From NCBI GenBank assembly GCA_934122085.1, contig CAKOVS010000002.1, positions 112,868 to 176,867 of the forward strand: DNA of 64,000 bases, written 5' to 3'. Position 1 is the stretch's first letter. Every line of letters starts with the position of its first letter. The position numbers and the translations under genes are program-made. The stretch comes from an uncultured Clostridia bacterium (GTDB taxonomy: Bacteria; Bacillota; Clostridia; TANB77; CAG-508). Positions 2,288 through 32,968 of the stretch are shown here, piece by piece. Below the pieces are notes generated by a model. It worked only from the letters and a program-made list of their open reading frames with translations, was not told the DNA's origin and searched no databases.

Positions 2288-3553
2288 TTATTTTTTTCTC
2301 CTAATAATCCAATTTTTTTCACATTTTATTGGAAGAAGTATTTTTACTTGTTGACCTTTTACCCCTGGATTTATAAATTCAATTTCTTTGTCTGTTTCTA
2401 TATCCCACATTTTCTCTATTTTGAATACAACTGGTTCTATATGATGTGGTACTAAAATTTCCATTGTATCTCCAACTTGTAATCTATTTCTTACTTCCAT
2501 AATTGATTTTTCTTCATTGTATTCCACAACTTTTCCACCAAATTGGTATAACTCATTATATTGATGTCCATCATATTCTTGTATATCTTGATTTTTTCTG
2601 TCATTGAAATAAAATGTTGTTAATTCTCTTGTTTTTATTTTTTCAATTTCTTTTAAATATTTATCAACATCATAATGTGATGGATCTTTTTTATAATCAT
2701 CTATTGCATTTCTATAAACATTTACTATACTTGCAACATAATATTCTGTTTTTAAACGTCCTTCTATTTTTACACTATCAACTCCCATGTCTATTATTTC
2801 TGGAAGTTCTCTTATTAAACATAAATCTTTTGATGAAAATATACTTGTTCCATGTTCGTCCATTTCTATTGGCATATATTGTCCTGGATTGTTTCTTTCT
2901 TCTGCATATAAATTATATGACCATCTACAGCTTTGTGCACAATCTCCTAAATTAGCACTTCTACAAGCTAAGAAATCACTCAAGAAACATCTTCCAGAAT
3001 ATGCAAAACATATTGCACCATGTACAAATATTTCAATTTCCATTCCTTCTGGTTTATTTGCCATTATATATTTTAATTGTTCTTTATTTAATTCTCTTGC
3101 CATTATCATTCTTTTAGCACCATTTTTATACCAGAAATTACATGAGTGTAAGCTTACTAGATTAGCTTGTGTACTTACATTTATTGGAACACTTGGTGCA
3201 TATTGTTTTAATGTTTCTATTACTCCTCCATCTGCTGCAATTATTCCATCCGGCTTTATTTCTTCTAATTTTTTTGCCATTTCTATTATTTCTGGATATG
3301 TTTCGTCCCAAGCATATATATTTAATGCTACATATACTTTTTTTCCAATACTATGTGCATATTTTATTGTTTGTATTAAATCATCATCTTGTATTTCTGC
3401 TCTTGATCTTAATGATAATGATGCTGTTCCACAATATACTGCATCTGCTCCGTATAAAAATGCTATTTTTGCTTTTTCAAATGATCCTGCTGGTGCTAAT
3501 AATTCTATTTCTTTCACTTTATTCTTTTCCTTTCTTCTTTCACGATAGCACAT
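2288..3553 (-). CDS. Peptidase U32 family protein
   Basis: ELLAPAGSFEKAKIAFLYGADAVYCG and the internal ARELN/E...FVHGA pattern are typical of U32 (collagenase-like) proteins. The true start may be the GTG at about 3517 (VKEIELLAPAG), preceded by AAAGGAAAAG. Confidence 0.8.
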   Translation of the reverse strand: MCYRERRKEKNKVKEIELLAPAGSFEKAKIAFLYGADAVYCGTASLSLRSRAEIQDDDLIQTIKYAHSIGKKVYVALNIYAWDETYPEIIEMAKKLEEIKPDGIIAADGGVIETLKQYAPSVPINVSTQANLVSLHSCNFWYKNGAKRMIMARELNKEQLKYIMANKPEGMEIEIFVHGAICFAYSGRCFLSDFLACRSANLGDCAQSCRWSYNLYAEERNNPGQYMPIEMDEHGTSIFSSKDLCLIRELPEIIDMGVDSVKIEGRLKTEYYVASIVNVYRNAIDDYKKDPSHYDVDKYLKEIEKIKTRELTTFYFNDRKNQDIQEYDGHQYNELYQFGGKVVEYNEEKSIMEVRNRLQVGDTMEILVPHHIEPVVFKIEKMWDIETDKEIEFINPGVKGQQVKILLPIKCEKNWIIRRKK

Positions 3554-3983: not shown

Positions 3984-5075
3984 TTAAACATTGAACTTAA
4001 ATACTACTATATCTCCATCTTGCATTACATATTCTTTTCCTTCTTGTCTAACAAGTCCTTTTTCTTTTGCAGCAAGCATTGAGCCTTCTTTCATTAAATC
4101 ATTATATGATACAACTTCTGCTTTAATAAATCCTCTTTCAAAGTCTGAGTGAATTTTTCCAGCAGCTTGTGGTGCTTTTGTTCCTTTTGTTATTGTCCAT
4201 GCTCTTACTTCAGTTTCACCAGCTGTAAGAAATGACATTAATCCAAGTAAATCATAACTTTTCTTTATTAATTTATCTAGTCCTGATTCTTCTAACCCAA
4301 GAGCTTCTAGCATTTCTTTTTTATCTGAATCATCTAGTCCTGATAATTCTTCTTCTATTTTTACACATAATGGAATTACTTCTGCATGTTCTTTTGCAGC
4401 ATATTCTTTTACTTGTTTTACCATTTCTTCATCATCTGCTGTTTGAATTTGCTCTTCTGATATATTAGCAATATAAATTATTGGTTTTGATGTTAATAAA
4501 AACATATCTTTTACTAATTCTTGTTCATCTTCATTACATTCTACAGCTCTCGCTGGAATTCCGTTATTTAAGTTTTCTTTTAATTTTTCAATTAAGTCTA
4601 TTTCTGCTTGATATTTTTTATCTGCTTTTAAATTTTTCTTTGCCTTGTCTAATCTTTTATCAAGTGTTTCTAAATCTGCGAATATTAATTCTAAGTTAAT
4701 TGTTTCTATGTCTCTTAATGGATTTACACTTCCATCTACATGTATTACATTTGGATCTTCAAAACATCTTACAACTTGGCAAATTGCGTCTACTTCTCTT
4801 ATGTGTGATAAAAATTTGTTTCCTAATCCTTCACCTTTACTTGCTCCTTTTACTAATCCTGCTATATCAACAAATTCTACTATTGCTTTTGTTATTTTGG
4901 CTGGATTATACATTTTAGCAAGATTGTCTATTCTCTCATCAGGTACTGCAACAACTCCTACATTTGGTTCTATTGTACAAAATGGATAGTTTGCACATTC
5001 TGCTCCTGCTTTTGTTATACTATTAAACATTGTACTTTTTCCTACATTTGGTAAGCCTACTATTCCTATTTTCAT
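3984..5075 (-). CDS. ychF: Ribosome-binding ATPase YchF
   Basis: MKIGIVGLPNVGKSTMFN is the P-loop, and the TGS-like C-terminus reads ...FIKAEVVSYNDL...; length 363 aa. Confidence 0.95.
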   Translation of the reverse strand: MKIGIVGLPNVGKSTMFNSITKAGAECANYPFCTIEPNVGVVAVPDERIDNLAKMYNPAKITKAIVEFVDIAGLVKGASKGEGLGNKFLSHIREVDAICQVVRCFEDPNVIHVDGSVNPLRDIETINLELIFADLETLDKRLDKAKKNLKADKKYQAEIDLIEKLKENLNNGIPARAVECNEDEQELVKDMFLLTSKPIIYIANISEEQIQTADDEEMVKQVKEYAAKEHAEVIPLCVKIEEELSGLDDSDKKEMLEALGLEESGLDKLIKKSYDLLGLMSFLTAGETEVRAWTITKGTKAPQAAGKIHSDFERGFIKAEVVSYNDLMKEGSMLAAKEKGLVRQEGKEYVMQDGDIVVFKFNV

Positions 5076-5987: not shown

Positions 5988-6851
5988 TTAATTTTCTTCT
6001 TCTATTTTATCTTCATCAAAATTATCTTCTTCTATTTTTACATCTTTTATAATTTTTATGTCTTTTACTTCATATCTTTTTTGTTTAAAAATATCTCCAT
6101 CTTTTATTCTAACTCTAACTACTTCTTTTAATGTTTCAACATTATCAACTTCTCCAACACCATCTGGAGTCTTTACTATTGCTCCTACATGTGGTAATCT
6201 TTTTTCTTTTTCTTCATATACTTCTTGTTCATATTTTAAACAACACATTAATCTACCACAATTTCCTGAAATTTTTGTTGGGTTTAATGAAAGATTTTGT
6301 TCTTTTGCCATTTTTATTGATACTGTTTCAAAGTCTCCTAAAAATGAACAACAACATAATTCACGTCCACAAACTCCATTTCCACCAATCCTTTTTACTT
6401 CATCTCTTACACCTATTTGTCTTAGTTCTATTCTTGTCTTATATGTTGCAGCTAAGTCTTTAACAAGTTCTCTAAAATCTACTCTTCCATCTGATGTAAA
6501 TGAAAATAATATTTTGCTATTATCAAATTTATATTCTACATCTGTTAAAGTCATGTCTAATTTATATTCTTTAATTTTTTTATTACAATATTCAAATGCT
6601 TCTTTTTCTTTCTTTTTTAAGTCTTCTGCATGTTTTAAATCTTTGCTTGATGCAAGTCTTAAAACTTTTTTTAATGGTGAATTTAATTTTTCTTCATCTA
6701 TCATTCTTCCTGGAATTATTACTTCTGCAATATCTTCACCTTGTGTTGTTTCAACAATAATATATTCACCCTTTTGGACTTCTAGCCATTTAGGATCAAA
6801 AAAATATATTTTTCCTAGTCTCTTAAATCTAACTCCTACTATTTTTTTCAT
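5988..6851 (-). CDS. ricT: PSP1-domain protein RicT/YaaT (stage 0 sporulation/regulatory iron-sulfur complex)
   Basis: Shows VRFKRLGKIYFFDP and the Cys cluster GVCGRELCCCSFL...GNCGRLMCCLKYE typical of YaaT. Lies directly downstream of holB, as in Bacillus. Confidence 0.85.
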   Translation of the reverse strand: MKKIVGVRFKRLGKIYFFDPKWLEVQKGEYIIVETTQGEDIAEVIIPGRMIDEEKLNSPLKKVLRLASSKDLKHAEDLKKKEKEAFEYCNKKIKEYKLDMTLTDVEYKFDNSKILFSFTSDGRVDFRELVKDLAATYKTRIELRQIGVRDEVKRIGGNGVCGRELCCCSFLGDFETVSIKMAKEQNLSLNPTKISGNCGRLMCCLKYEQEVYEEKEKRLPHVGAIVKTPDGVGEVDNVETLKEVVRVRIKDGDIFKQKRYEVKDIKIIKDVKIEEDNFDEDKIEEEN

Positions 6852-6865
6852 TCATTACGTCCTTT

Positions 6866-7774
6866 CTATTTTCGAAATAAATAATTTATATTAAATAATA
6901 AATTATCTATGCACATATCATAATTACTATTTGCTTTTAGTCTTTTTTTAGTTTCTTCTACAAAATCTATAGCATTTATATATCTTAAATCTTCTTTGCT
7001 TAATTTTAACAATAAAACATTCATATATTCTAAAACAGAGTATATTTCTTCTTTTGCTTTATATATTTCTTCTGACATTTTTACAATATCTATTATGTCT
7101 TTATTTTTAAAACTTTTTAATATATTTTCAATGTTTTCATATAAAGCTTTATTTTCATTTAGTTTTAATGCTTTTCCTATACTACCTTGTGAAAGATTTA
7201 TTATACTATCATCAATCTCTATTTCTGGATAATTTTGTTTTATATAACCTTTCACTTCAGAAATTTCTAAATTTTCAAAATGTATTCTTGTACATCTTGA
7301 TTTTATGGTGCTTAACATATTATCTTCGTTTGAACATATTAATATAATCGTTACATATTCTGGTGGTTCTTCCAATGTTTTTAATAAGCAATTTTGTGCT
7401 TCTGATGTCATAGTATCACTATCATCTATTATATATACTTTATTGTCTGATACTATTGGTTTTTCTGCTACTTTTCTTTGCATTTCTCTTATTTGATCTA
7501 TTTTTACTTTTCCATCTTGTGGTTCTATCATCATAAAATCTGGATTATTATTAGAGTCAAATTCTATACATGCTTTACATCTACAATTTTCTTCATTTGG
7601 TGTTAAACATAGTAATTTTTTGGCAAATTCTAAAGCTATTTTTTTCTTTCCAATTCCTTCTGTTCCCCAAAACAAATAACTATGTGATGTTTTGTTTAAT
7701 TCTAAGGCTTTTTTTAATATTGCTTTGTTTTTTTCGTTTCCAATTATTTTTTCAAACAATTTATACTCCTCCAA
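6866..7774 (-). CDS. holB: DNA polymerase III subunit delta prime
   Basis: AAA+ clamp-loader motifs: HSYLFWGTEGIGKKKIA, a zinc module (CRCKAC) and SRC (IKSRCTRIHF). Confidence 0.85.
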   Translation of the reverse strand: MEEYKLFEKIIGNEKNKAILKKALELNKTSHSYLFWGTEGIGKKKIALEFAKKLLCLTPNEENCRCKACIEFDSNNNPDFMMIEPQDGKVKIDQIREMQRKVAEKPIVSDNKVYIIDDSDTMTSEAQNCLLKTLEEPPEYVTIILICSNEDNMLSTIKSRCTRIHFENLEISEVKGYIKQNYPEIEIDDSIINLSQGSIGKALKLNENKALYENIENILKSFKNKDIIDIVKMSEEIYKAKEEIYSVLEYMNVLLLKLSKEDLRYINAIDFVEETKKRLKANSNYDMCIDNLLFNINYLFRK

Positions 7775-28106: not shown

Positions 28107-29252
28107 CTACTCTGAAATCTTTTCCTTTTTCAATTCAATCCAATCATTTATGATAATTTTAAGCACTGCAACCACAGGCACTGCTAGAAACATTCCTATA
28201 ACTCCAAAATATGCTCCTCCTATTGTTACTGCTACAATTACTAATAATGGACTTATTTCTAATGAATCTCCAATTATTTTTGGATTAATGATATTTGAAT
28301 CTATTTGTTGTAATATTATAACAACTAATGCCATCCAAAAAGCTTTTGATAATCCTCCCGTAATTAATGTTATTAATATACTTAAACCTACTGCTACTAT
28401 CGCTCCAAAGTATGGTATTATATTAAATAATCCAATCATAAATCCAAGTAATATAGAATATTTAACACCTATTATACTCATTGCTATTGTTACTAAAATT
28501 CCAACAACAACCCCATCTATTAATTGTCCACTTATAAATTTAAAAAATATTTGATTTGAATTATGTACATATTTACTTATTTTGTTACAATTTTTTTCTC
28601 CAAATATTACAATTGTTACATTTTTAAAAAATTCAATAATTTGTGTCCTTTGTAGTAATATATATATAGATACTATTATTGTTACAAATACATCAAAAAT
28701 ACCACTTGCAACTCCTAAAGCTCCTTTTACATATTCAGTAATTTTTTCTGGATTTATGTATTGTTTCAAATCAATATTTTGAATATTAACTCCTATTTCT
28801 TTTATTGCTTCTGTTACTTTTTCATTTTTCAAAAATGAATCTTCTGGTAATCCATTTAATTTATTTATTGTTGCATTCCAATAATTTTGAAAATTGTTTA
28901 CTAATTCAATTATACTTTCTGTTACTACTGGTAATATAACATTTACTAATAATATTATTAATATTATTGCAATTGCAAGTGTTATGAAAACGCTTAAGCC
29001 TCGAGCTTTCTTTTTCAAAAATTTCTTTTTTGACTTCAATAATTTTTTTTCAATTCTTGATGCAGGGATATATAACAAATATGCCATCAAAGTTCCTGCT
29101 AAAAATGGTGATATTACTCCAACAAATTTTCCTATTGCATTTCCTATTGCAGTAAAATTATCTAGAAATTTATAAACTAAAATTATTGCAACTGCTAACA
29201 AAAACCAATACATCCATTTTGAAAAATTCTTTTTTACTTCATTCATTCTCAT
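28107..29252 (-). CDS. AI-2E family transporter (UPF0118/PerM-like)
   Basis: 8-TM topology and the conserved C-terminal GGAYFGVIGMFLAVPVVAVLKII. Confidence 0.85.
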   Translation of the reverse strand: MRMNEVKKNFSKWMYWFLLAVAIILVYKFLDNFTAIGNAIGKFVGVISPFLAGTLMAYLLYIPASRIEKKLLKSKKKFLKKKARGLSVFITLAIAIILIILLVNVILPVVTESIIELVNNFQNYWNATINKLNGLPEDSFLKNEKVTEAIKEIGVNIQNIDLKQYINPEKITEYVKGALGVASGIFDVFVTIIVSIYILLQRTQIIEFFKNVTIVIFGEKNCNKISKYVHNSNQIFFKFISGQLIDGVVVGILVTIAMSIIGVKYSILLGFMIGLFNIIPYFGAIVAVGLSILITLITGGLSKAFWMALVVIILQQIDSNIINPKIIGDSLEISPLLVIVAVTIGGAYFGVIGMFLAVPVVAVLKIIINDWIELKKEKISE

Positions 29253-29260
29253 CTCTCCTC

Positions 29261-30010
29261 TTATTCAATTTCCAATCCTACAGGACAATGATCACTTCCA
29301 AATACTTTTGTATATATTGTTGCATCTTTTATTTTTTCTTTAAAATCATTTGAAACAATAAAATAATCAATTCTCCATCCTACATTTTTTTCTCTTGCAT
29401 GTCCCATATATGACCACCAACTATATTCTATTTTTTGTGGGTATAAATACCTATATGAATCTATAAAACCAGAATTTAATAACTCAGTCATTTTTCCTCT
29501 TTCTTCATCTGTGAAACCTGCATTTCCTTTATTTGTTTTTGGATTCTTTAAATCTATTTCTTCATGTGCTACATTTAGGTCTCCACACATAATTACTGGT
29601 TTTTTTTTATTTAATTCTAATAAATATTTTCTTATTTCATCTTCCCATATCATTCTATATTCTAATCTTTCAAGTTCTCTTTTGGCATTTGGAGTATAAT
29701 TTGTTACTAAATAAAATTCCTTAAACTCTAGTGTTATTATTCGTCCTTCTTTATCGTGTTCTTCTATTCCAATTCCATATGTTACTTTTATTGGTTGCTT
29801 TTTAGTAAATATTGCTGTTCCAGAATATCCTTTCTTTTCTGCACTATTCCAATAACTTGTATATCCTTCAAATTCTAATTCAATTTGTTCTGGTTGACAT
29901 TTTGTTTCTTGCAAACAAAATATATCTGCATCTATATTTCTAAAAAATTCTGAAAATCCTTTTGTTAAACATGCTCTTATTCCATTTACATTCCATGATA
30001 TTAGTTTCAT
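29261..30010 (-). CDS. xth: Exodeoxyribonuclease III
   Basis: Shows MKLISWNVNGIRA, CLQETK, GDLNVAH and the SDHCPV endonuclease/exonuclease/phosphatase motifs. Confidence 0.95.
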   Translation of the reverse strand: MKLISWNVNGIRACLTKGFSEFFRNIDADIFCLQETKCQPEQIELEFEGYTSYWNSAEKKGYSGTAIFTKKQPIKVTYGIGIEEHDKEGRIITLEFKEFYLVTNYTPNAKRELERLEYRMIWEDEIRKYLLELNKKKPVIMCGDLNVAHEEIDLKNPKTNKGNAGFTDEERGKMTELLNSGFIDSYRYLYPQKIEYSWWSYMGHAREKNVGWRIDYFIVSNDFKEKIKDATIYTKVFGSDHCPVGLEIE

Positions 30011-30071
30011 ATATTTCCTCCATAAATGAATTATAACATATTATTATATAAAATAAAAGAATTGTAGGTAA

Positions 30072-30150
30072 TTTTTCTTATTTGTTCTTGCCCGATTTGA
30101 GTTTCTGGGTGAAGCTATGAAATCTCAAAGAGTTAGCAATTGTAACTTAT
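30072..30150 (+). repeat. Intergenic repeat family, 3-prime-truncated copy
   Basis: Reads TTTTTCTTATTTGTTCTTGCCCGATTTGAGTTTCTGGGTGAAGCTATGAAATCTCAAAGAGTTAGCAATTGTAAC. The terminal inverted repeat is missing. Confidence 0.65.
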
Positions 30151-30299
30151 TATATAGTTATATATTTGAACTATCTTCTTTTTTATCTTGAGAAACTTTT
30201 TGGTCAGATTTATTTTTAGTTTCTTGTTATATTTCTTTAGAATTATTAGTATTGATTACTTGGTTTATATTTTTATTTTTGTTTACACTATATATGTAG

Positions 30300-30485
30300 G
30301 TGATAAAAGTGAAAAAATTAAAAATTGAAAAGAGTTCTAAGAATAATGACACAATAACAAGAACAATTAGAATGAGCGGAACAACATTTGACCAAATAAA
30401 TGAATTAGCCGAAAAAAATAATTTAAGTTTTAATAATGTAGTAAATCAATTAATAGAATATGGGCTTAATAATTTAGAAGATTAA
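30300..30485 (+). CDS. Ribbon-helix-helix (CopG/Arc-like) DNA-binding protein
   Basis: In TRTIRMSGTTFDQINELAEKNNLSFNNVVNQLIEYGL, a beta strand is followed by two helices. The start is probably the GTG at 30309, just after AGGTGA. Confidence 0.55.
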   Translation: MIKVKKLKIEKSSKNNDTITRTIRMSGTTFDQINELAEKNNLSFNNVVNQLIEYGLNNLED

Positions 30486-30505
30486 AATAGATCTAATTTT
30501 TAGGT

Positions 30506-30534
30506 TTGACAAATATAAAAAAAAATGCTATTAT
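30506..30534 (+). promoter_or_regulatory. Near-consensus sigma-A promoter (TTGACA-17-TGcTATTAT)
   Basis: TTGACA at 30506-30511, a 17-nt spacer, and an extended -10 TGCTATTAT at 30526-30534. Confidence 0.6.
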
Positions 30535-30540
30535 ATATTT

Positions 30541-30622
30541 AGCTTAAGCAAATGTGTCATAAGTCGTATTGACATATATTATGTACTGGTGTGTGTAACT
30601 GCAATTACACATACTTTTTTTA
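30541..30622 (+). ncRNA. Candidate ~80-nt sRNA (antitoxin-like), from promoter to terminator
   Basis: It starts downstream of the 30506 promoter and ends at a 10-bp stem (30589-30614) plus T7. It contains AAGTCGTAT-TGACATAT-AT-TATGTAC (30560-30586), complementary in trans to the RBS/start region of the minus-strand ORF at 30776. Confidence 0.45.
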
Positions 30623-30633
30623 TTTTCAAAAAA

Positions 30634-30659
30634 GCAGAAACACCTGCAATTGTTTCCGC
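30634..30659 (-). terminator. Intrinsic terminator for the convergent small-ORF transcript
   Basis: On the minus strand, GCGGAAACA-ATTGCAGG-TGTTTCTGC is followed by TTTTTTG. It abuts the sRNA terminator. Confidence 0.6.
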
Positions 30660-30674
30660 TTCCGACTAAATATG

Positions 30675-30776
30675 TTAGTCTTTGTCATTCATTTTTTCAT
30701 CTCTTAATTGATTGTTCTTGTCTTTTTCAGCAAGTAACATCTCAATTAATTGTAAGATTAAGTCGTATGATGACAT
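30675..30776 (-). CDS. 33-codon small ORF (candidate type I toxin-like peptide)
   Basis: Strong SD GGAAAGGGGGT lies 7 nt upstream of the ATG. Translation is MSSYDLILQLIEMLLAEKDKNNQLRDEKMNDKD. It has its own promoter (TTGAAA-17-TATATT, 30841-30869 on the minus strand) and terminator. Confidence 0.4.
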   Translation of the reverse strand: MSSYDLILQLIEMLLAEKDKNNQLRDEKMNDKD

Positions 30777-30972
30777 ATTATGTACCCCCTTTCCATCCTT
30801 AAGCAAGGACTACCTTTCTGTCAGTGAAAAGGTTACAAGTAATATACTACATTCGAATAGATATTTCAAGATATTTTACATAAATTTCAAAATCATTTTA
30901 TTTACACTTTATTCTTACATTTATACTTTGAGTTTAATTTGTTTATAATTCTTTTTAAATCTTTTTGCAAAA

Positions 30973-31203
30973 TTATTTCTCAACACATGTGGGTATATAT
31001 TTTCCTCTCTCTTTAGTGTTTTTAATATAATTTAAAATAATTTGTTCTGTTACTTGTTCTGTCTTTGTTACTTTGTATATATCTTGTAAATATCTAATAA
31101 ATAACCTTAATGTTTGCTCATAACTTAAAATAGTTCTTTGCGCTAAATTTTTATAATCACAATAACTCATAAAATCGTCTACTTCTAAATCAATTTTTTC
31201 CAT
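30973..31203 (-). pseudogene. Truncated tyrosine recombinase/phage integrase (N-terminal SAM-like domain only)
   Basis: MEKIDLEVDDFMSYCDYKNLAQRTILSYEQTLRLFIRYL...ILNYI is the core-binding domain. The ORF stops after about 76 aa and no catalytic domain follows. Confidence 0.65.
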
Positions 31204-31399
31204 AATAAAAACCTCCATATTCTTTTTCATGAATACTAGAGGTTAGGCAATAAATCTCTTATGTTTGTTGCATTAGTCTATTTGTATCTATTGGATTAAG
31301 TACTGATTTTTTATTAAATCTAGTGCAAAAAATGCAATCTGTATTTATTTATTGATATTACAAATTTCTGTATCTGGCTTCTCTCAAGTCTTTTAAATT

Positions 31400-32227
31400 T
31401 CACGCACTCTTAAGTTCAAGCCTTAATTTATCACTAATCATTGCTATAAACTCCGAATTAGTAGGCTTTCCTTTGGCTGCTGATATTGTATATCCAAATA
31501 TGTTTTCTACTGTCTTTTGTTCTCCTCTTCCCCATGCTACTTCTATTGCATGGCGTATTGCTCTTTCTACTCGTGATGGAGTTGTGTGAAATTTATTGGC
31601 TATTTGTGGATATAAACATTTTGTAATTTGATTTATAACATCAATATCATTTATAACCATAATAATTGCTTCTCTTAAATATTGATACCCCTTTATATGT
31701 GCTGGTACTCCAACTTCATGTATAACATTGGTAACTAATGCTTCAATATTTTCTTCTTTATTTGCTGAGTTATTTGGAATATCAATATATTGTGATTTAC
31801 TTATTCCTATTTCTCTTGAAATAAAATTATTGTTTTGTGATGATGGTTTGTAATTTTTTAATTCTCTTATTCTTGTTATAAGTAAATCTATATCAAATGG
31901 TTTTACAACATAATATTCAGCTCCAAGTTCAATTGCTCTTCTGGTTACTTTGTCTTGTCCAACTGCTGATAACATTATACAAATAGGTTTTTTGTTTAAT
32001 TTTATCATGTTCATTTGTTCTAAAACCCCTATTCCATCTAAATGTGGCATTATTACATCTAATAATAATACGTCTGGCATTAGACTAGATACCATATCTA
32101 AAGCTTCATTTCCATCTTTTGCTCTTCCCACAACTACCATATCTTCTTGATTTTTTAAATATGTTGCTAATGTTGTACTAAATTCTTGATTATCATCTGC
32201 TATTAAAACTGTGATTTTTTCTCTCAT
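31400..32227 (-). CDS. spo0A: Sporulation master regulator Spo0A
   Basis: A receiver domain (VLIADDN...[12 protein letters not shown]) plus the Spo0A-specific C-terminal domain ([19 protein letters not shown]...[17 protein letters not shown]...[12 protein letters not shown]). Confidence 0.95.
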
Positions 32228-32329
32228 GTTTTTTCCTCCTATTTTTCAATTGTAAAAAACTTACATTTTGGATTATATTATATTGAATTTAAGATTACAA
32301 TATATTTTTGGAAGTTTTTGACATTTCAA

Positions 32330-32968
32330 TCACTTATTTACTACTATATTTACTATTTTTCGACAACTTTCGACAATTCTTATTTTATTGATTTTTTGTT
32401 CTTCGATGTTTTTCAAAAAAATATCCTTTTTCTCTTTTTCCATTTCAATTTTTATTTTTATATTTTCTGAATAATCAATATTTATGATATTTATATCGTT
32501 ACTTTTACAATAATATTTAAAATTTTCTAAATTAGAATAATCTGTTTCTAATTCAATTTCAAAACCATCTTTTTGAGATACTAATTCGCTTTTTTGAATA
32601 GCTTTTTTAGTTGCATCTGAATATGCTCTAACTAGTCCACCTGTTCCAAGTAAAATTCCACCAAAATATCTTGTTACAATAACTATTATATTACATAAAT
32701 TACTTCCTTGTAATATATTTAGCATAGGAGCTCCAGCTGTTCCTGATGGTTCTCCATCATCACTTGATTTTTCAATTATTCTATCTTCTTCTATAATTCT
32801 ATAAGCTATGCAGTGATGTTTTGCATCATAATATTTCTTTTTTATTTTTTTTATTTTGTTTTCTGCTTCTTCCACATTTCTTACTGGATAAATATCTGCT
32901 ATAAATTTTGATTTTTTTTCAATAATTTCTGCTGTTTCATTTTTTAATATTGTATAAAATTCTTTCAT
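32330..32968 (-). CDS. yigZ: YigZ/IMPACT-family protein (UPF0029)
   Basis: Shows SKFIADIYPV...AKHHCIAYRI...DDGEPSGTAGAPML and a C-terminal DUF1949-like region. Confidence 0.85.
   Translation of the reverse strand: MKEFYTILKNETAEIIEKKSKFIADIYPVRNVEEAENKIKKIKKKYYDAKHHCIAYRIIEEDRIIEKSSDDGEPSGTAGAPMLNILQGSNLCNIIVIVTRYFGGILLGTGGLVRAYSDATKKAIQKSELVSQKDGFEIELETDYSNLENFKYYCKSNDINIINIDYSENIKIKIEMEKEKKDIFLKNIEEQKINKIRIVESCRKIVNIVVNK
32359..32375 (-). promoter_or_regulatory. Two tandem consensus 0A boxes (TGTCGAA) one helical turn apart
   Basis: The minus strand reads TTGTCGAAAGTTGTCGAAAA, with boxes at 32369-32375 and 32359-32365. They lie about 130-150 nt upstream of the spo0A start, inside the 3-prime end of yigZ. 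Confidence 0.5.

Follow-up and report, generated by a model that had tools for sequence, protein, structure and literature searches.

What kind of genetic module lies at positions 30506-30869 of the window, i.e., the 64,000-nt stretch of contig CAKOVS010000002.1 from an uncultured Clostridia bacterium (GC content of the source organism 26.4%) analysed here, where a gene for a small RNA (sRNA) and a gene with a 33-codon open reading frame (ORF) face each other? A first-pass annotation of the sequence had proposed a type I toxin-antitoxin (TA) module resembling the enterococcal par locus, in which the sRNA would be complementary in trans to the start-codon region of the messenger RNA (mRNA), and every feature that it had listed, i.e., promoters, terminators, Shine-Dalgarno (SD) sequence, ORF and repeat, could be located as described. 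The locus probably represents an undescribed family of par-like cassettes of uncultured gut Clostridia with a type I TA-like build and a peptide that is presumed to be toxic. Comparison of homologous loci makes it very likely that the sRNA represses translation through two co-varying contacts; as to a growth-inhibitory action of the peptide, we lean slightly towards it.

The cassette is a self-contained unit of ~360 bases, present once in the window, and consists of two convergent transcription units. On the plus strand, an sRNA of ~80 nt (30541-30622, its ends predicted from promoter and terminator), the candidate antitoxin, would be transcribed from a promoter with an extended -10 TG (TTGACA-17-TGcTATTAT, 30506-30534; 11 of 12 consensus positions in a promoter scan). 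Folding for minimum free energy (MFE) predicts a 5' stem-loop (30552-30577) with the stem AUGUGUCA/UGACAUAU and the loop UAAGUCGUAU (30560-69), whose sequence complements ORF codons 4-7, and a terminator scan identified an intrinsic terminator (30588-30622), comprising a hairpin of 11 pairs (30588-30615) with the apical loop CUGCAA (30599-30604) and a subsequent T run. On the minus strand, a weaker promoter (TTGAAA-17-TATATT, 30869-30841; 10 of 12 positions in the scan) would give rise to an mRNA with a predicted length of ~207 nt, which carries a 58-nt 5' leader (30777-30834) with the hairpins CCUUUU/GAAAGG and UCCUU/AAGGA, the SD sequence GGAAAGGGGG (30794-30785), the 33-codon ORF MSSYDLILQLIEMLLAEKDKNNQLRDEKMNDKD (from the ATG at 30776 to 30675, stop codon included), a hairpin GACUA...UAGUC around the stop codon (30664-30680) and an intrinsic terminator (30626-30663) with a 13-bp stem (30663-30630), the loop AUUGCAGG (30650-30643) and a U run. 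Only the 5-bp core of this last hairpin (30647-30634) was recovered by the scan, while folding extends the stem to its full 13 bp. The two terminators stand back to back, 18 nt apart, and the predicted transcripts do not overlap. Instead, the two units are connected by a direct repeat, one copy of which (30560-30586, plus strand) provides the sRNA with complementarity to the translation-initiation region (TIR) of the mRNA, and the other (30759-30785, minus strand) coincides with the mRNA target (30759-30786), which reaches from the SD-AUG spacer via the AUG to codon 6 and, in the duplex model, to the first base of codon 7.

The predicted duplex of the sRNA with the TIR amounts to -31.2 kcal/mol (RNAduplex), as compared to -13.4 +/- 2.9 kcal/mol in 1000 dinucleotide-preserving shuffles (z = -6.1), and the proposed interaction of the first-pass annotation was borne out by this calculation. 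Its division into blocks of 9, 8 and 7 bp had to be revised, however, as the pairing is better described by RNAduplex and sequence as 11 + 4 + 10 bp with two 2-nt bulges. DNA was fetched for 64 loci (referred to by L numbers below), and across their clades the first codons of the ORF vary and the sRNA varies alongside. Thus, the mRNA segment UCAUCAUACGACUUA of the window faces the sRNA complement UCAAUACGACUUA, UCUAGUUACGACC of L034 faces UUUCGUUACGACC, AGCUACGACC of L043 faces UUGCUACGACC, and AACAGUGAUAU of L047 faces AACAGCGAUAU, while the sRNA complement is identical for CAAGCUAUGAUC of L045, AAACGACCU of L019 and CCAGACCU of L055. Wherever the ORF is conserved, the repeat is conserved as well and tracks the 5' codons in every clade, with the complementarity ending exactly at the 3' edge of the SD sequence and at codon 7 throughout. 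Cognate pairs reach a mean duplex energy of -30.2 kcal/mol versus -21.0 kcal/mol for non-cognate combinations. The mRNAs of the divergent clades L019, L043, L045 and L048 each pair best with their cognate sRNA, and for the L047 mRNA solely the sRNA of its near-identical sister L048 marginally outscores the cognate one.

In a gap-free alignment of 19 distinct pairs with 15 column pairs, 89% of the cells are paired and 7 of the 15 column pairs display changes on both sides, values that were matched in none of 500 shuffles; controls in which the partners were slid against each other yielded 20-46%. According to these comparisons, the complementarity over the start codon is maintained by compensatory changes. 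Ten of the 16 non-Watson-Crick cells inside the TIR helices are G-U pairs, which argues for selection on RNA pairing and not on identity of the DNA repeat. For 12 of 13 representative sRNAs, folding predicts that the stretch matching the first codons lies in the 5' hairpin, in or next to its apical loop (the exception, L019, is folded differently), and a covariance model of the sRNA (R1) scores 87 bits for the window sRNA and 37-102 bits for homologues at other loci. A further 9-nt repeat, CTTAAGCAA (at 30543 and 30798), was considered as a third pairing site, but was treated as a chance match, since it lacks colinearity with the main duplex and is not kept in clades B, L019 and L047.

A second contact, absent from the first-pass annotation, may be formed between the two terminators. 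In the window, the terminator loop of the mRNA (AUUGCAGG) is complementary to that of the sRNA (CUGCAA), and this match is restricted to the apical loops, the stems being unrelated in sequence. The resulting loop-loop helix of 7 bp is 100% paired in 12 distinct rows that comprise four loop sequences (UUGCAG, UCGCAG, UUAACGG, and UUUACGG), with both partners changing together: 4 pairs are changed on both sides, none is changed on one side only, and there are no breaks, as compared to 23-41% pairing in slid controls. Three additional complementary loop variants (UUCGUGG, AUUGUGG, and GUUGUG) occur in distant members, and the loops of L051 and L054, read by eye, belong to the UUUACGG type. On the grounds of complementarity and covariation, the terminator loops are hence a candidate kissing site.

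Intramolecular structure may add a further layer of control. Both terminators are backed by compensatory changes in the alignments, with many such pairs in the mRNA terminator and 4 among the 9 bp of the sRNA terminator stem. Consensus folding of 18 mRNAs with RNAalifold predicts two leader hairpins, the second with 2 pairs changed on both sides and the first absent in clades with short leaders. RNAalifold moreover pairs the SD sequence (GGAAAGGGGGU) with codons 5-8 so that the AUG is exposed in the loop (alignment columns 47-57 with 76-87), while the single-sequence MFE fold pairs it with the mRNA 5' end ACCUUUUC instead. Sequestration of the SD sequence within the mRNA is plausible in the light of these models. 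Inside the ORF, RNAalifold predicts the hairpin UUAAUUG/CAAUUAA, in which one A-U pair is replaced by a compensatory G-C pair in L047 and L048. At its end, UAGUC of an invariant element in the 3' untranslated region, TACATAGTCGA, is predicted to pair with GACUA at the stop codon; this hairpin (pairs 162-166 with 181-185, followed by a conserved GAAAG) has the same sequence in each of the 18 aligned mRNAs and is possibly a processing or stability element. Pairing of TACATAGTCGA with codons 4-7 was also considered and rejected, as no covariation was found between them.

More than 40 distinct loci of uncultured Clostridia carry the entire cassette, and the par-like convergent architecture with back-to-back terminators that the first-pass annotation had recognised is thus kept as a unit in many unrelated genomic contexts. 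All genome records are metagenome-assembled genomes (MAGs) of uncultured Clostridia or Clostridium from the gut of human, chicken, mouse, goat, and rabbit. Wherever the sequence suffices, the parts follow the same order, i.e., mRNA promoter, leader (starting with AACCUUUU), SD sequence, ORF, stop-codon hairpin, and mRNA terminator, and then a variable spacer, the sRNA terminator, the complement of the ORF start, and the sRNA promoter; the terminators are spaced by 10-60 nt at most other loci, again without transcript overlap. In 33 loci, both the position and the sequence of the sRNA promoter (consensus TTGACAAAT...aTGtTATTAT) are retained; the mRNA promoter is conserved in position (consensus cTTGttT...TAatAT), and the promoter pair is kept in 31-33 loci. 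Most loci (e.g., L001 and L022) also have a conserved TGTTCGCTTG box that overlaps the -35 region of the mRNA promoter, ~35-42 nt ahead of the mRNA start, and could be a regulator-binding site; it is absent from the window copy.

In contrast to the constant order of the parts, the flanking genes vary. Depending on the locus, the cassette follows a PBP5 gene, lies between pyk and recJ, or adjoins genes for a copper ATPase or an FtsZ-like protein, and it also occurs in mobile settings such as those of L009-L018 (integrase, a 56-aa ORF, and RepA_N), L051 (an excisionase-like helix-turn-helix protein and a full-length integrase), and L054 (TnpV, RepA_N, and integrase). Searches by tblastn with the ribbon-helix-helix (RHH) gene product and integrase fragment of the window and with the integrase, 56-aa ORF, RepA_N, and sortase of L009 revealed no neighbour that is linked to the cassette across loci. 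Multiple copies occur: L033 and L042 stem from one MAG, and L026 and L042 harbour a second, paralogous cassette ~1.3 kb upstream of the main one, which in L026 (1300-1800) codes for a peptide of 41 aa (MTNAELILQLVDKLLKQKEEIETLK...) and comes with a separate GUUGUG loop pair and separate start-region complementarity, and in L042 (about 1650) was seen as a match to the sRNA model only. Decayed copies are found as well. L039 and L056 lack the SD sequence and leader and retain the sRNA, and L046 lacks both the end of the ORF and the sRNA, while none of the loci examined combines an intact mRNA with a demonstrable lack of the sRNA. In L021, an element resembling insertion sequences (IS) of the IS200/IS605 type (~3270-3357; transposase start MKDNNSLAHSTWNC) occupies the neutral spacer between the terminators, and the contig ends inside this IS element, so that the sRNA side is not covered.

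The ORF itself is a genuine gene. Searches with a 43-aa, TTG-extended version of the ORF retrieved 28 proteins with a common core of 29-35 aa (MSSYDLILxLIEMLLAEKDKNxQL...KD), and a profile search among 1.84 billion cluster representatives recovered 89 peptide clusters at 50% identity (E <= 0.001; consensus MTxxDLILRLVEMLLxEKDKNxxL...KD), most of which comprise 29-45 residues, the longer entries including N-terminally extended gene calls. Codon comparisons resulted in a pN/pS (non-synonymous versus synonymous differences) of ~0.29 at pS values of up to 1.0 and included a TCA to AGT switch of a serine codon, which together show that the ORF is translated and under purifying selection. AlphaFold2 predicts one helix spanning residues 3-31 with a predicted local distance difference test (pLDDT) score of 90.6. 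The helix is amphipathic at residues 5-16, where it displays a narrow polar stripe, and the remainder of the peptide is a charged tail; the polar residues D5, E12, E17, K18, K20, and N21 are invariant in the close set. The peptide family has no name in any source, and its motif was found in no indexed paper.

Taken together, the following mode of action may be envisaged. The strong constitutive promoter would supply an excess of the ~80-nt, two-hairpin sRNA, and the weaker convergent promoter a structured mRNA of ~207 nt. The sRNA terminator loop (CUGCAA) would first kiss the mRNA terminator loop (UUGCAG), upon which the 5' half of the sRNA could zip onto ~25 nt of the mRNA within positions -11 to +21, i.e., from the SD edge to codon 7, thereby excluding the ribosome and possibly generating a substrate for RNase III; the fold of the mRNA would additionally sequester the SD sequence. 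If the sRNA supply stops, e.g., by loss of the element or a block of transcription, the structured mRNA would outlast the sRNA and the peptide would be made. It would presumably harm or arrest the cell, thus favouring retention of cassette-carrying DNA. An addictive role of this kind is indirectly supported by the spread of the cassette without a partner gene, its linkage to integrase and RepA_N genes, the tandem copies, its survival in a decayed islet, and the pattern of decay; multiple or tandem copies are usual for chromosomal type I loci.

Several observations weigh against this interpretation. As the first-pass annotation had already cautioned, the peptide does not resemble Fst. It belongs to a hydrophilic family (mean grand average of hydropathy -0.87), whose best 19-aa Kyte-Doolittle windows (family mean 0.32, maximum 0.82) contain no transmembrane segment, as compared to best windows of 2.2-2.5 for Fst and TisB. 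A transmembrane helix is present in nearly all known type I toxins (PMC12390103; PMC5961336). Among 40 family members, no match to Pfam, the Fst family included, was obtained at E values of up to 10, and NCBIfam, PDB sequences, PADLOC, and PHROG returned nothing meaningful and no toxin or defence family. The sequenced plasmids of PLSDB and phages of INPHARED contain no match to the cassette in blastn searches, and IMG/VR contains one matching viral contig, with the match at the contig end. On the RNA side, the helix between the SD sequence and codons 5-8 is well paired, but its changes are one-sided only, and promoters, transcript ends, and folds are predictions. Part of the covariation signal could stem from concerted evolution of the DNA repeat, and the family sample is narrow, coming from uncultured Clostridia only, so that many of the sequences are not independent.

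The same RNA circuit might control a non-toxic product, i.e., a small cytosolic regulator or binding peptide whose expression is tuned or gated by the antisense RNA and which, for example, uses its amphipathic helix to modulate a protein of the host or of the mobile element. The hydrophilic nature, the single long predicted helix, and the invariant polar residues would suit such a role, as they suggest a specific partner and not membrane insertion, and so would the lack of a match to any toxin or defence family and the fixation of the cassette in a decayed islet of one species. We nonetheless consider a non-toxic peptide, the main alternative, less likely, since no partner gene is conserved beside the cassette in more than 10 contexts, linkage to integrase or RepA_N genes is frequent, tandem or multiple copies occur, a strong antisense promoter opposes a weak sense promoter with layered translational silencing, and the sRNA is kept when the ORF loses its expression signals. 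Lone travel, mobile linkage, promoter imbalance, and this pattern of decay are typical of addiction modules, in agreement with the preferred reading of a type I TA-like cassette. A more specific form of that reading, which we put forward as a tentative possibility, would make the cassette the first example of a type I toxin family of hydrophilic, single-helix, cytosolic peptides of 30-42 residues, neither membrane peptides nor enzymes, that bind an essential protein via the invariant amphipathic N-terminal helix (DLILRLVEMLLxEK) and are controlled by an sRNA with two co-evolving contacts and no overlap.

How does the cassette relate to known systems? In its generic build it agrees with type I modules, as computational and comparative data suggest an mRNA with a small ORF and a partly complementary sRNA from the same locus; the usual hydrophobic membrane peptide is missing, for which SymE and RalR provide exceptions (PMC12390103). 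The closest parallel is par of the Enterococcus faecalis plasmid pAD1 (Fst, RNA I/RNA II), with which the window cassette shares the convergent promoters (predicted here), an mRNA of similar size (~210 nt in par, ~207 nt in the window) with a short sRNA (~80 nt in the window), a 33-aa peptide with a charged tail, direct repeats that render the 5' region of the sRNA complementary to the initiation region, and complementary terminator loops. In par of pAD1, the convergent RNAs first interact by kissing of the terminator loops and subsequently pair across the direct repeats over the initiation region, and the SD sequence is held in a 5' stem-loop (PMC7472228); for the window mRNA, RNAalifold and MFE folding each predict a structure over the SD sequence, albeit with different partners. 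The co-varying complementarity of the terminator loops brings the cassette nearer to par than the first-pass annotation had recognised.

There are nevertheless marked differences. While the par RNAs share one bidirectional terminator and overlap at their 3' ends, the window cassette possesses two hairpins (30588-30615 and 30630-30663) without overlap. The U-turn loop motif of par (YUNR), which is not present in all par homologues (PMC7472228), is missing from the window loops AUUGCAGG and CUGCAA and present in loops of other clades (UUUAACGG and UUUUACGG). Fst features a transmembrane helix, a conserved Trp, and a P/D/S/TxxxG(C) motif, none of which is found in the window peptide, which has no match to the Fst family of Pfam either; no Trp precedes the tail in the close set, and no xxxG-type motif occurs in the family. 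Judged by these features, the wiring appears par-like, but the cassette fails to fit the Fst/RNAII family on two defining features, i.e., the shared terminator and the Fst-like toxin. It might still be argued that it is a very divergent but true member of the par family, homologous and not merely analogous, given that the peptide length and charged C-terminal tail, the convergent promoters, TIR direct repeats, terminator-loop complementarity, and possible SD sequestration all recall par (PMC7472228) and that Fst homologues have been reported in Clostridia (PMC7472228). We regard such homology as improbable, as none of the 40 members had a Pfam match even at E values of up to 10, the transmembrane segment, conserved Trp, and P/D/S/TxxxG motif are lacking, the terminators are separate, and the sRNA matches no Rfam antitoxin family; Rfam searches of either strand at E values of up to 10 gave chance matches only across positions 29000-32500 (E >= 2), and in a search at gathering score nothing was obtained at the locus.

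Other systems share individual traits with the cassette. In SprA1/SprA1AS of Staphylococcus aureus, the antitoxin gene is located 3' of the toxin gene and its 5' domain pairs with the TIR in trans, as proposed here (PMC8594479), whereas SprA1AS overlaps the 3' end of the mRNA and its toxin PepA1, which belongs to the Fst superfamily, is a membrane peptide, in contrast to the non-overlapping RNAs and hydrophilic peptide of the cassette. The Clostridioides difficile modules CD2517.1/RCd8, CD2907.1/RCd9, and CD0956.2/RCd10 likewise have a clostridial host and convergent genes, as well as structured mRNAs with sequestered ribosome-binding sites and an association with mobile elements (PMC5961336). 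However, their RNAs overlap by 131-283 nt, and their toxins comprise 50-53 aa with a transmembrane N-terminus and lysine-rich tail (PMC5961336); they bear no sequence similarity to the cassette family. TisB/IstR-1, ShoB/OhsC, Zor/Orz, and DinQ/AgrB resemble the cassette in their trans-acting antitoxins with limited complementarity and non-overlapping genes (PMC8594479), but differ from it by a 5' and divergent sRNA gene, hydrophobic toxins, and the lack of loop kissing. In the Gram-positive T1TAdb families, the antitoxin gene is situated on the 3' side of the toxin gene, with an overlap between the two, whereas the non-overlapping cases are Gram-negative, with the antitoxin gene in 5' and divergent position; a 3'-convergent, non-overlapping arrangement with loop complementarity is not among the organisations listed there (PMC8594479). 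SymE/SymR and RalR/RalA, finally, are precedents for non-membrane, cytosolic type I toxins (PMC12390103), from which the cassette peptide differs in being a single helix, too small for an enzyme.

That the repeats are mere DNA-level features (recombination sites, iterons, or duplication remnants) with incidental promoter and terminator look-alikes and no RNA pairing is hardly credible, for even though the complementarity formally is a direct DNA repeat and promoter-like matches are common in this AT-rich region (22 found versus 19.7 expected), such features would account neither for the near-consensus sRNA promoter kept in position and sequence in 33 loci, the compensatory changes in the sRNA terminator stem, and loops that stay complementary on unrelated stems, nor for the tolerance of G-U wobbles where the repeats differ and repeat bounds that coincide exactly with the SD edge and codon 7 in all clades.

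While the overall regulatory logic is already known, a hydrophilic peptide is unexpected for the type I class. Type I TA systems have been sought by way of hydrophobic transmembrane peptides (Fozo 2010, summarised in PMC8594479; PMC12390103), and if the family indeed consists of hydrophilic cytosolic toxins as tentatively considered above, screens based on hydrophobicity would systematically have overlooked modules of this kind. The cassette combines RNA-level hallmarks of a type I module with a soluble helical peptide; should the latter prove toxic, the range of type I toxins would widen, an intracellular target in gut Clostridia would be indicated, and a soluble helix of 33 aa would constitute a different exception from SymE and RalR. 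Irrespective of the peptide, the family offers an exceptionally clean natural experiment in RNA-RNA co-evolution, with two sites kept through seven loop sequences and several start-region sequences, and its specificity variants lend themselves to studying the nucleation of kissing complexes in antisense control between non-overlapping transcripts. The cassette furthermore marks remnants of integrative elements in abundant uncultured gut species, and as a compact, orthogonal sRNA/target pair it might be put to use in Clostridia as a regulatory part.

In the window, the cassette is part of a decayed mobile-element islet, in line with the first-pass annotation. A truncated integrase gene (30973-31230, minus strand) that encodes 85 aa and the N-terminal SAM-like domain only (PF02899 at 1.6e-6) sits just upstream of the mRNA promoter, and a similar fragment is found upstream of the L046 copy. 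On the other side, an Arc-like RHH gene of 61 aa (30300-30485, plus strand; phrog_5118 at 4e-11, Arc-like repressor at 2.5e-6) ends 20 nt before the -35 box of the sRNA promoter without an intervening terminator, and read-through from it would add to the sRNA levels; a similar read-through arrangement has been described for parEF0409 (PMC7472228). The RHH gene is specific to the source species, and tblastn searches showed no linkage between it and the cassette outside that species. The islet of integrase fragment, cassette, and RHH gene is located between spo0A (31400-32227, minus strand) and xth and was recovered in this position from 22 metagenome contigs of the same species with identical Spo0A. 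Further away, the gene of an AgrB-family protein (27091-27702, minus strand) is separated from the islet by an AI-2E transporter gene and xth.

A few additional observations were made in passing. In L053, the sRNA terminator hairpin (GUAUGUGUAAUUGCAGUUACACAUAC) is also found by itself at 4800-4882, where it terminates an unrelated 59-aa gene; this copy may be left over from a further cassette or may have been reused. The same locus contains a TA pair of the HepT/MNT (nucleotidyltransferase) type at 6420-7071, near the cassette and separated from it by the PBP5 gene. Elsewhere in the window, group II intron domains (RF00029 and RF02012) at 57449-57539 and 59425-59577 on the minus strand belong to one intron of ~2.1 kb, and a full-length OLE (ornate large extremophilic) RNA is encoded at 18028-18577, also on the minus strand (RF01071, 310 bits, E = 2e-87).

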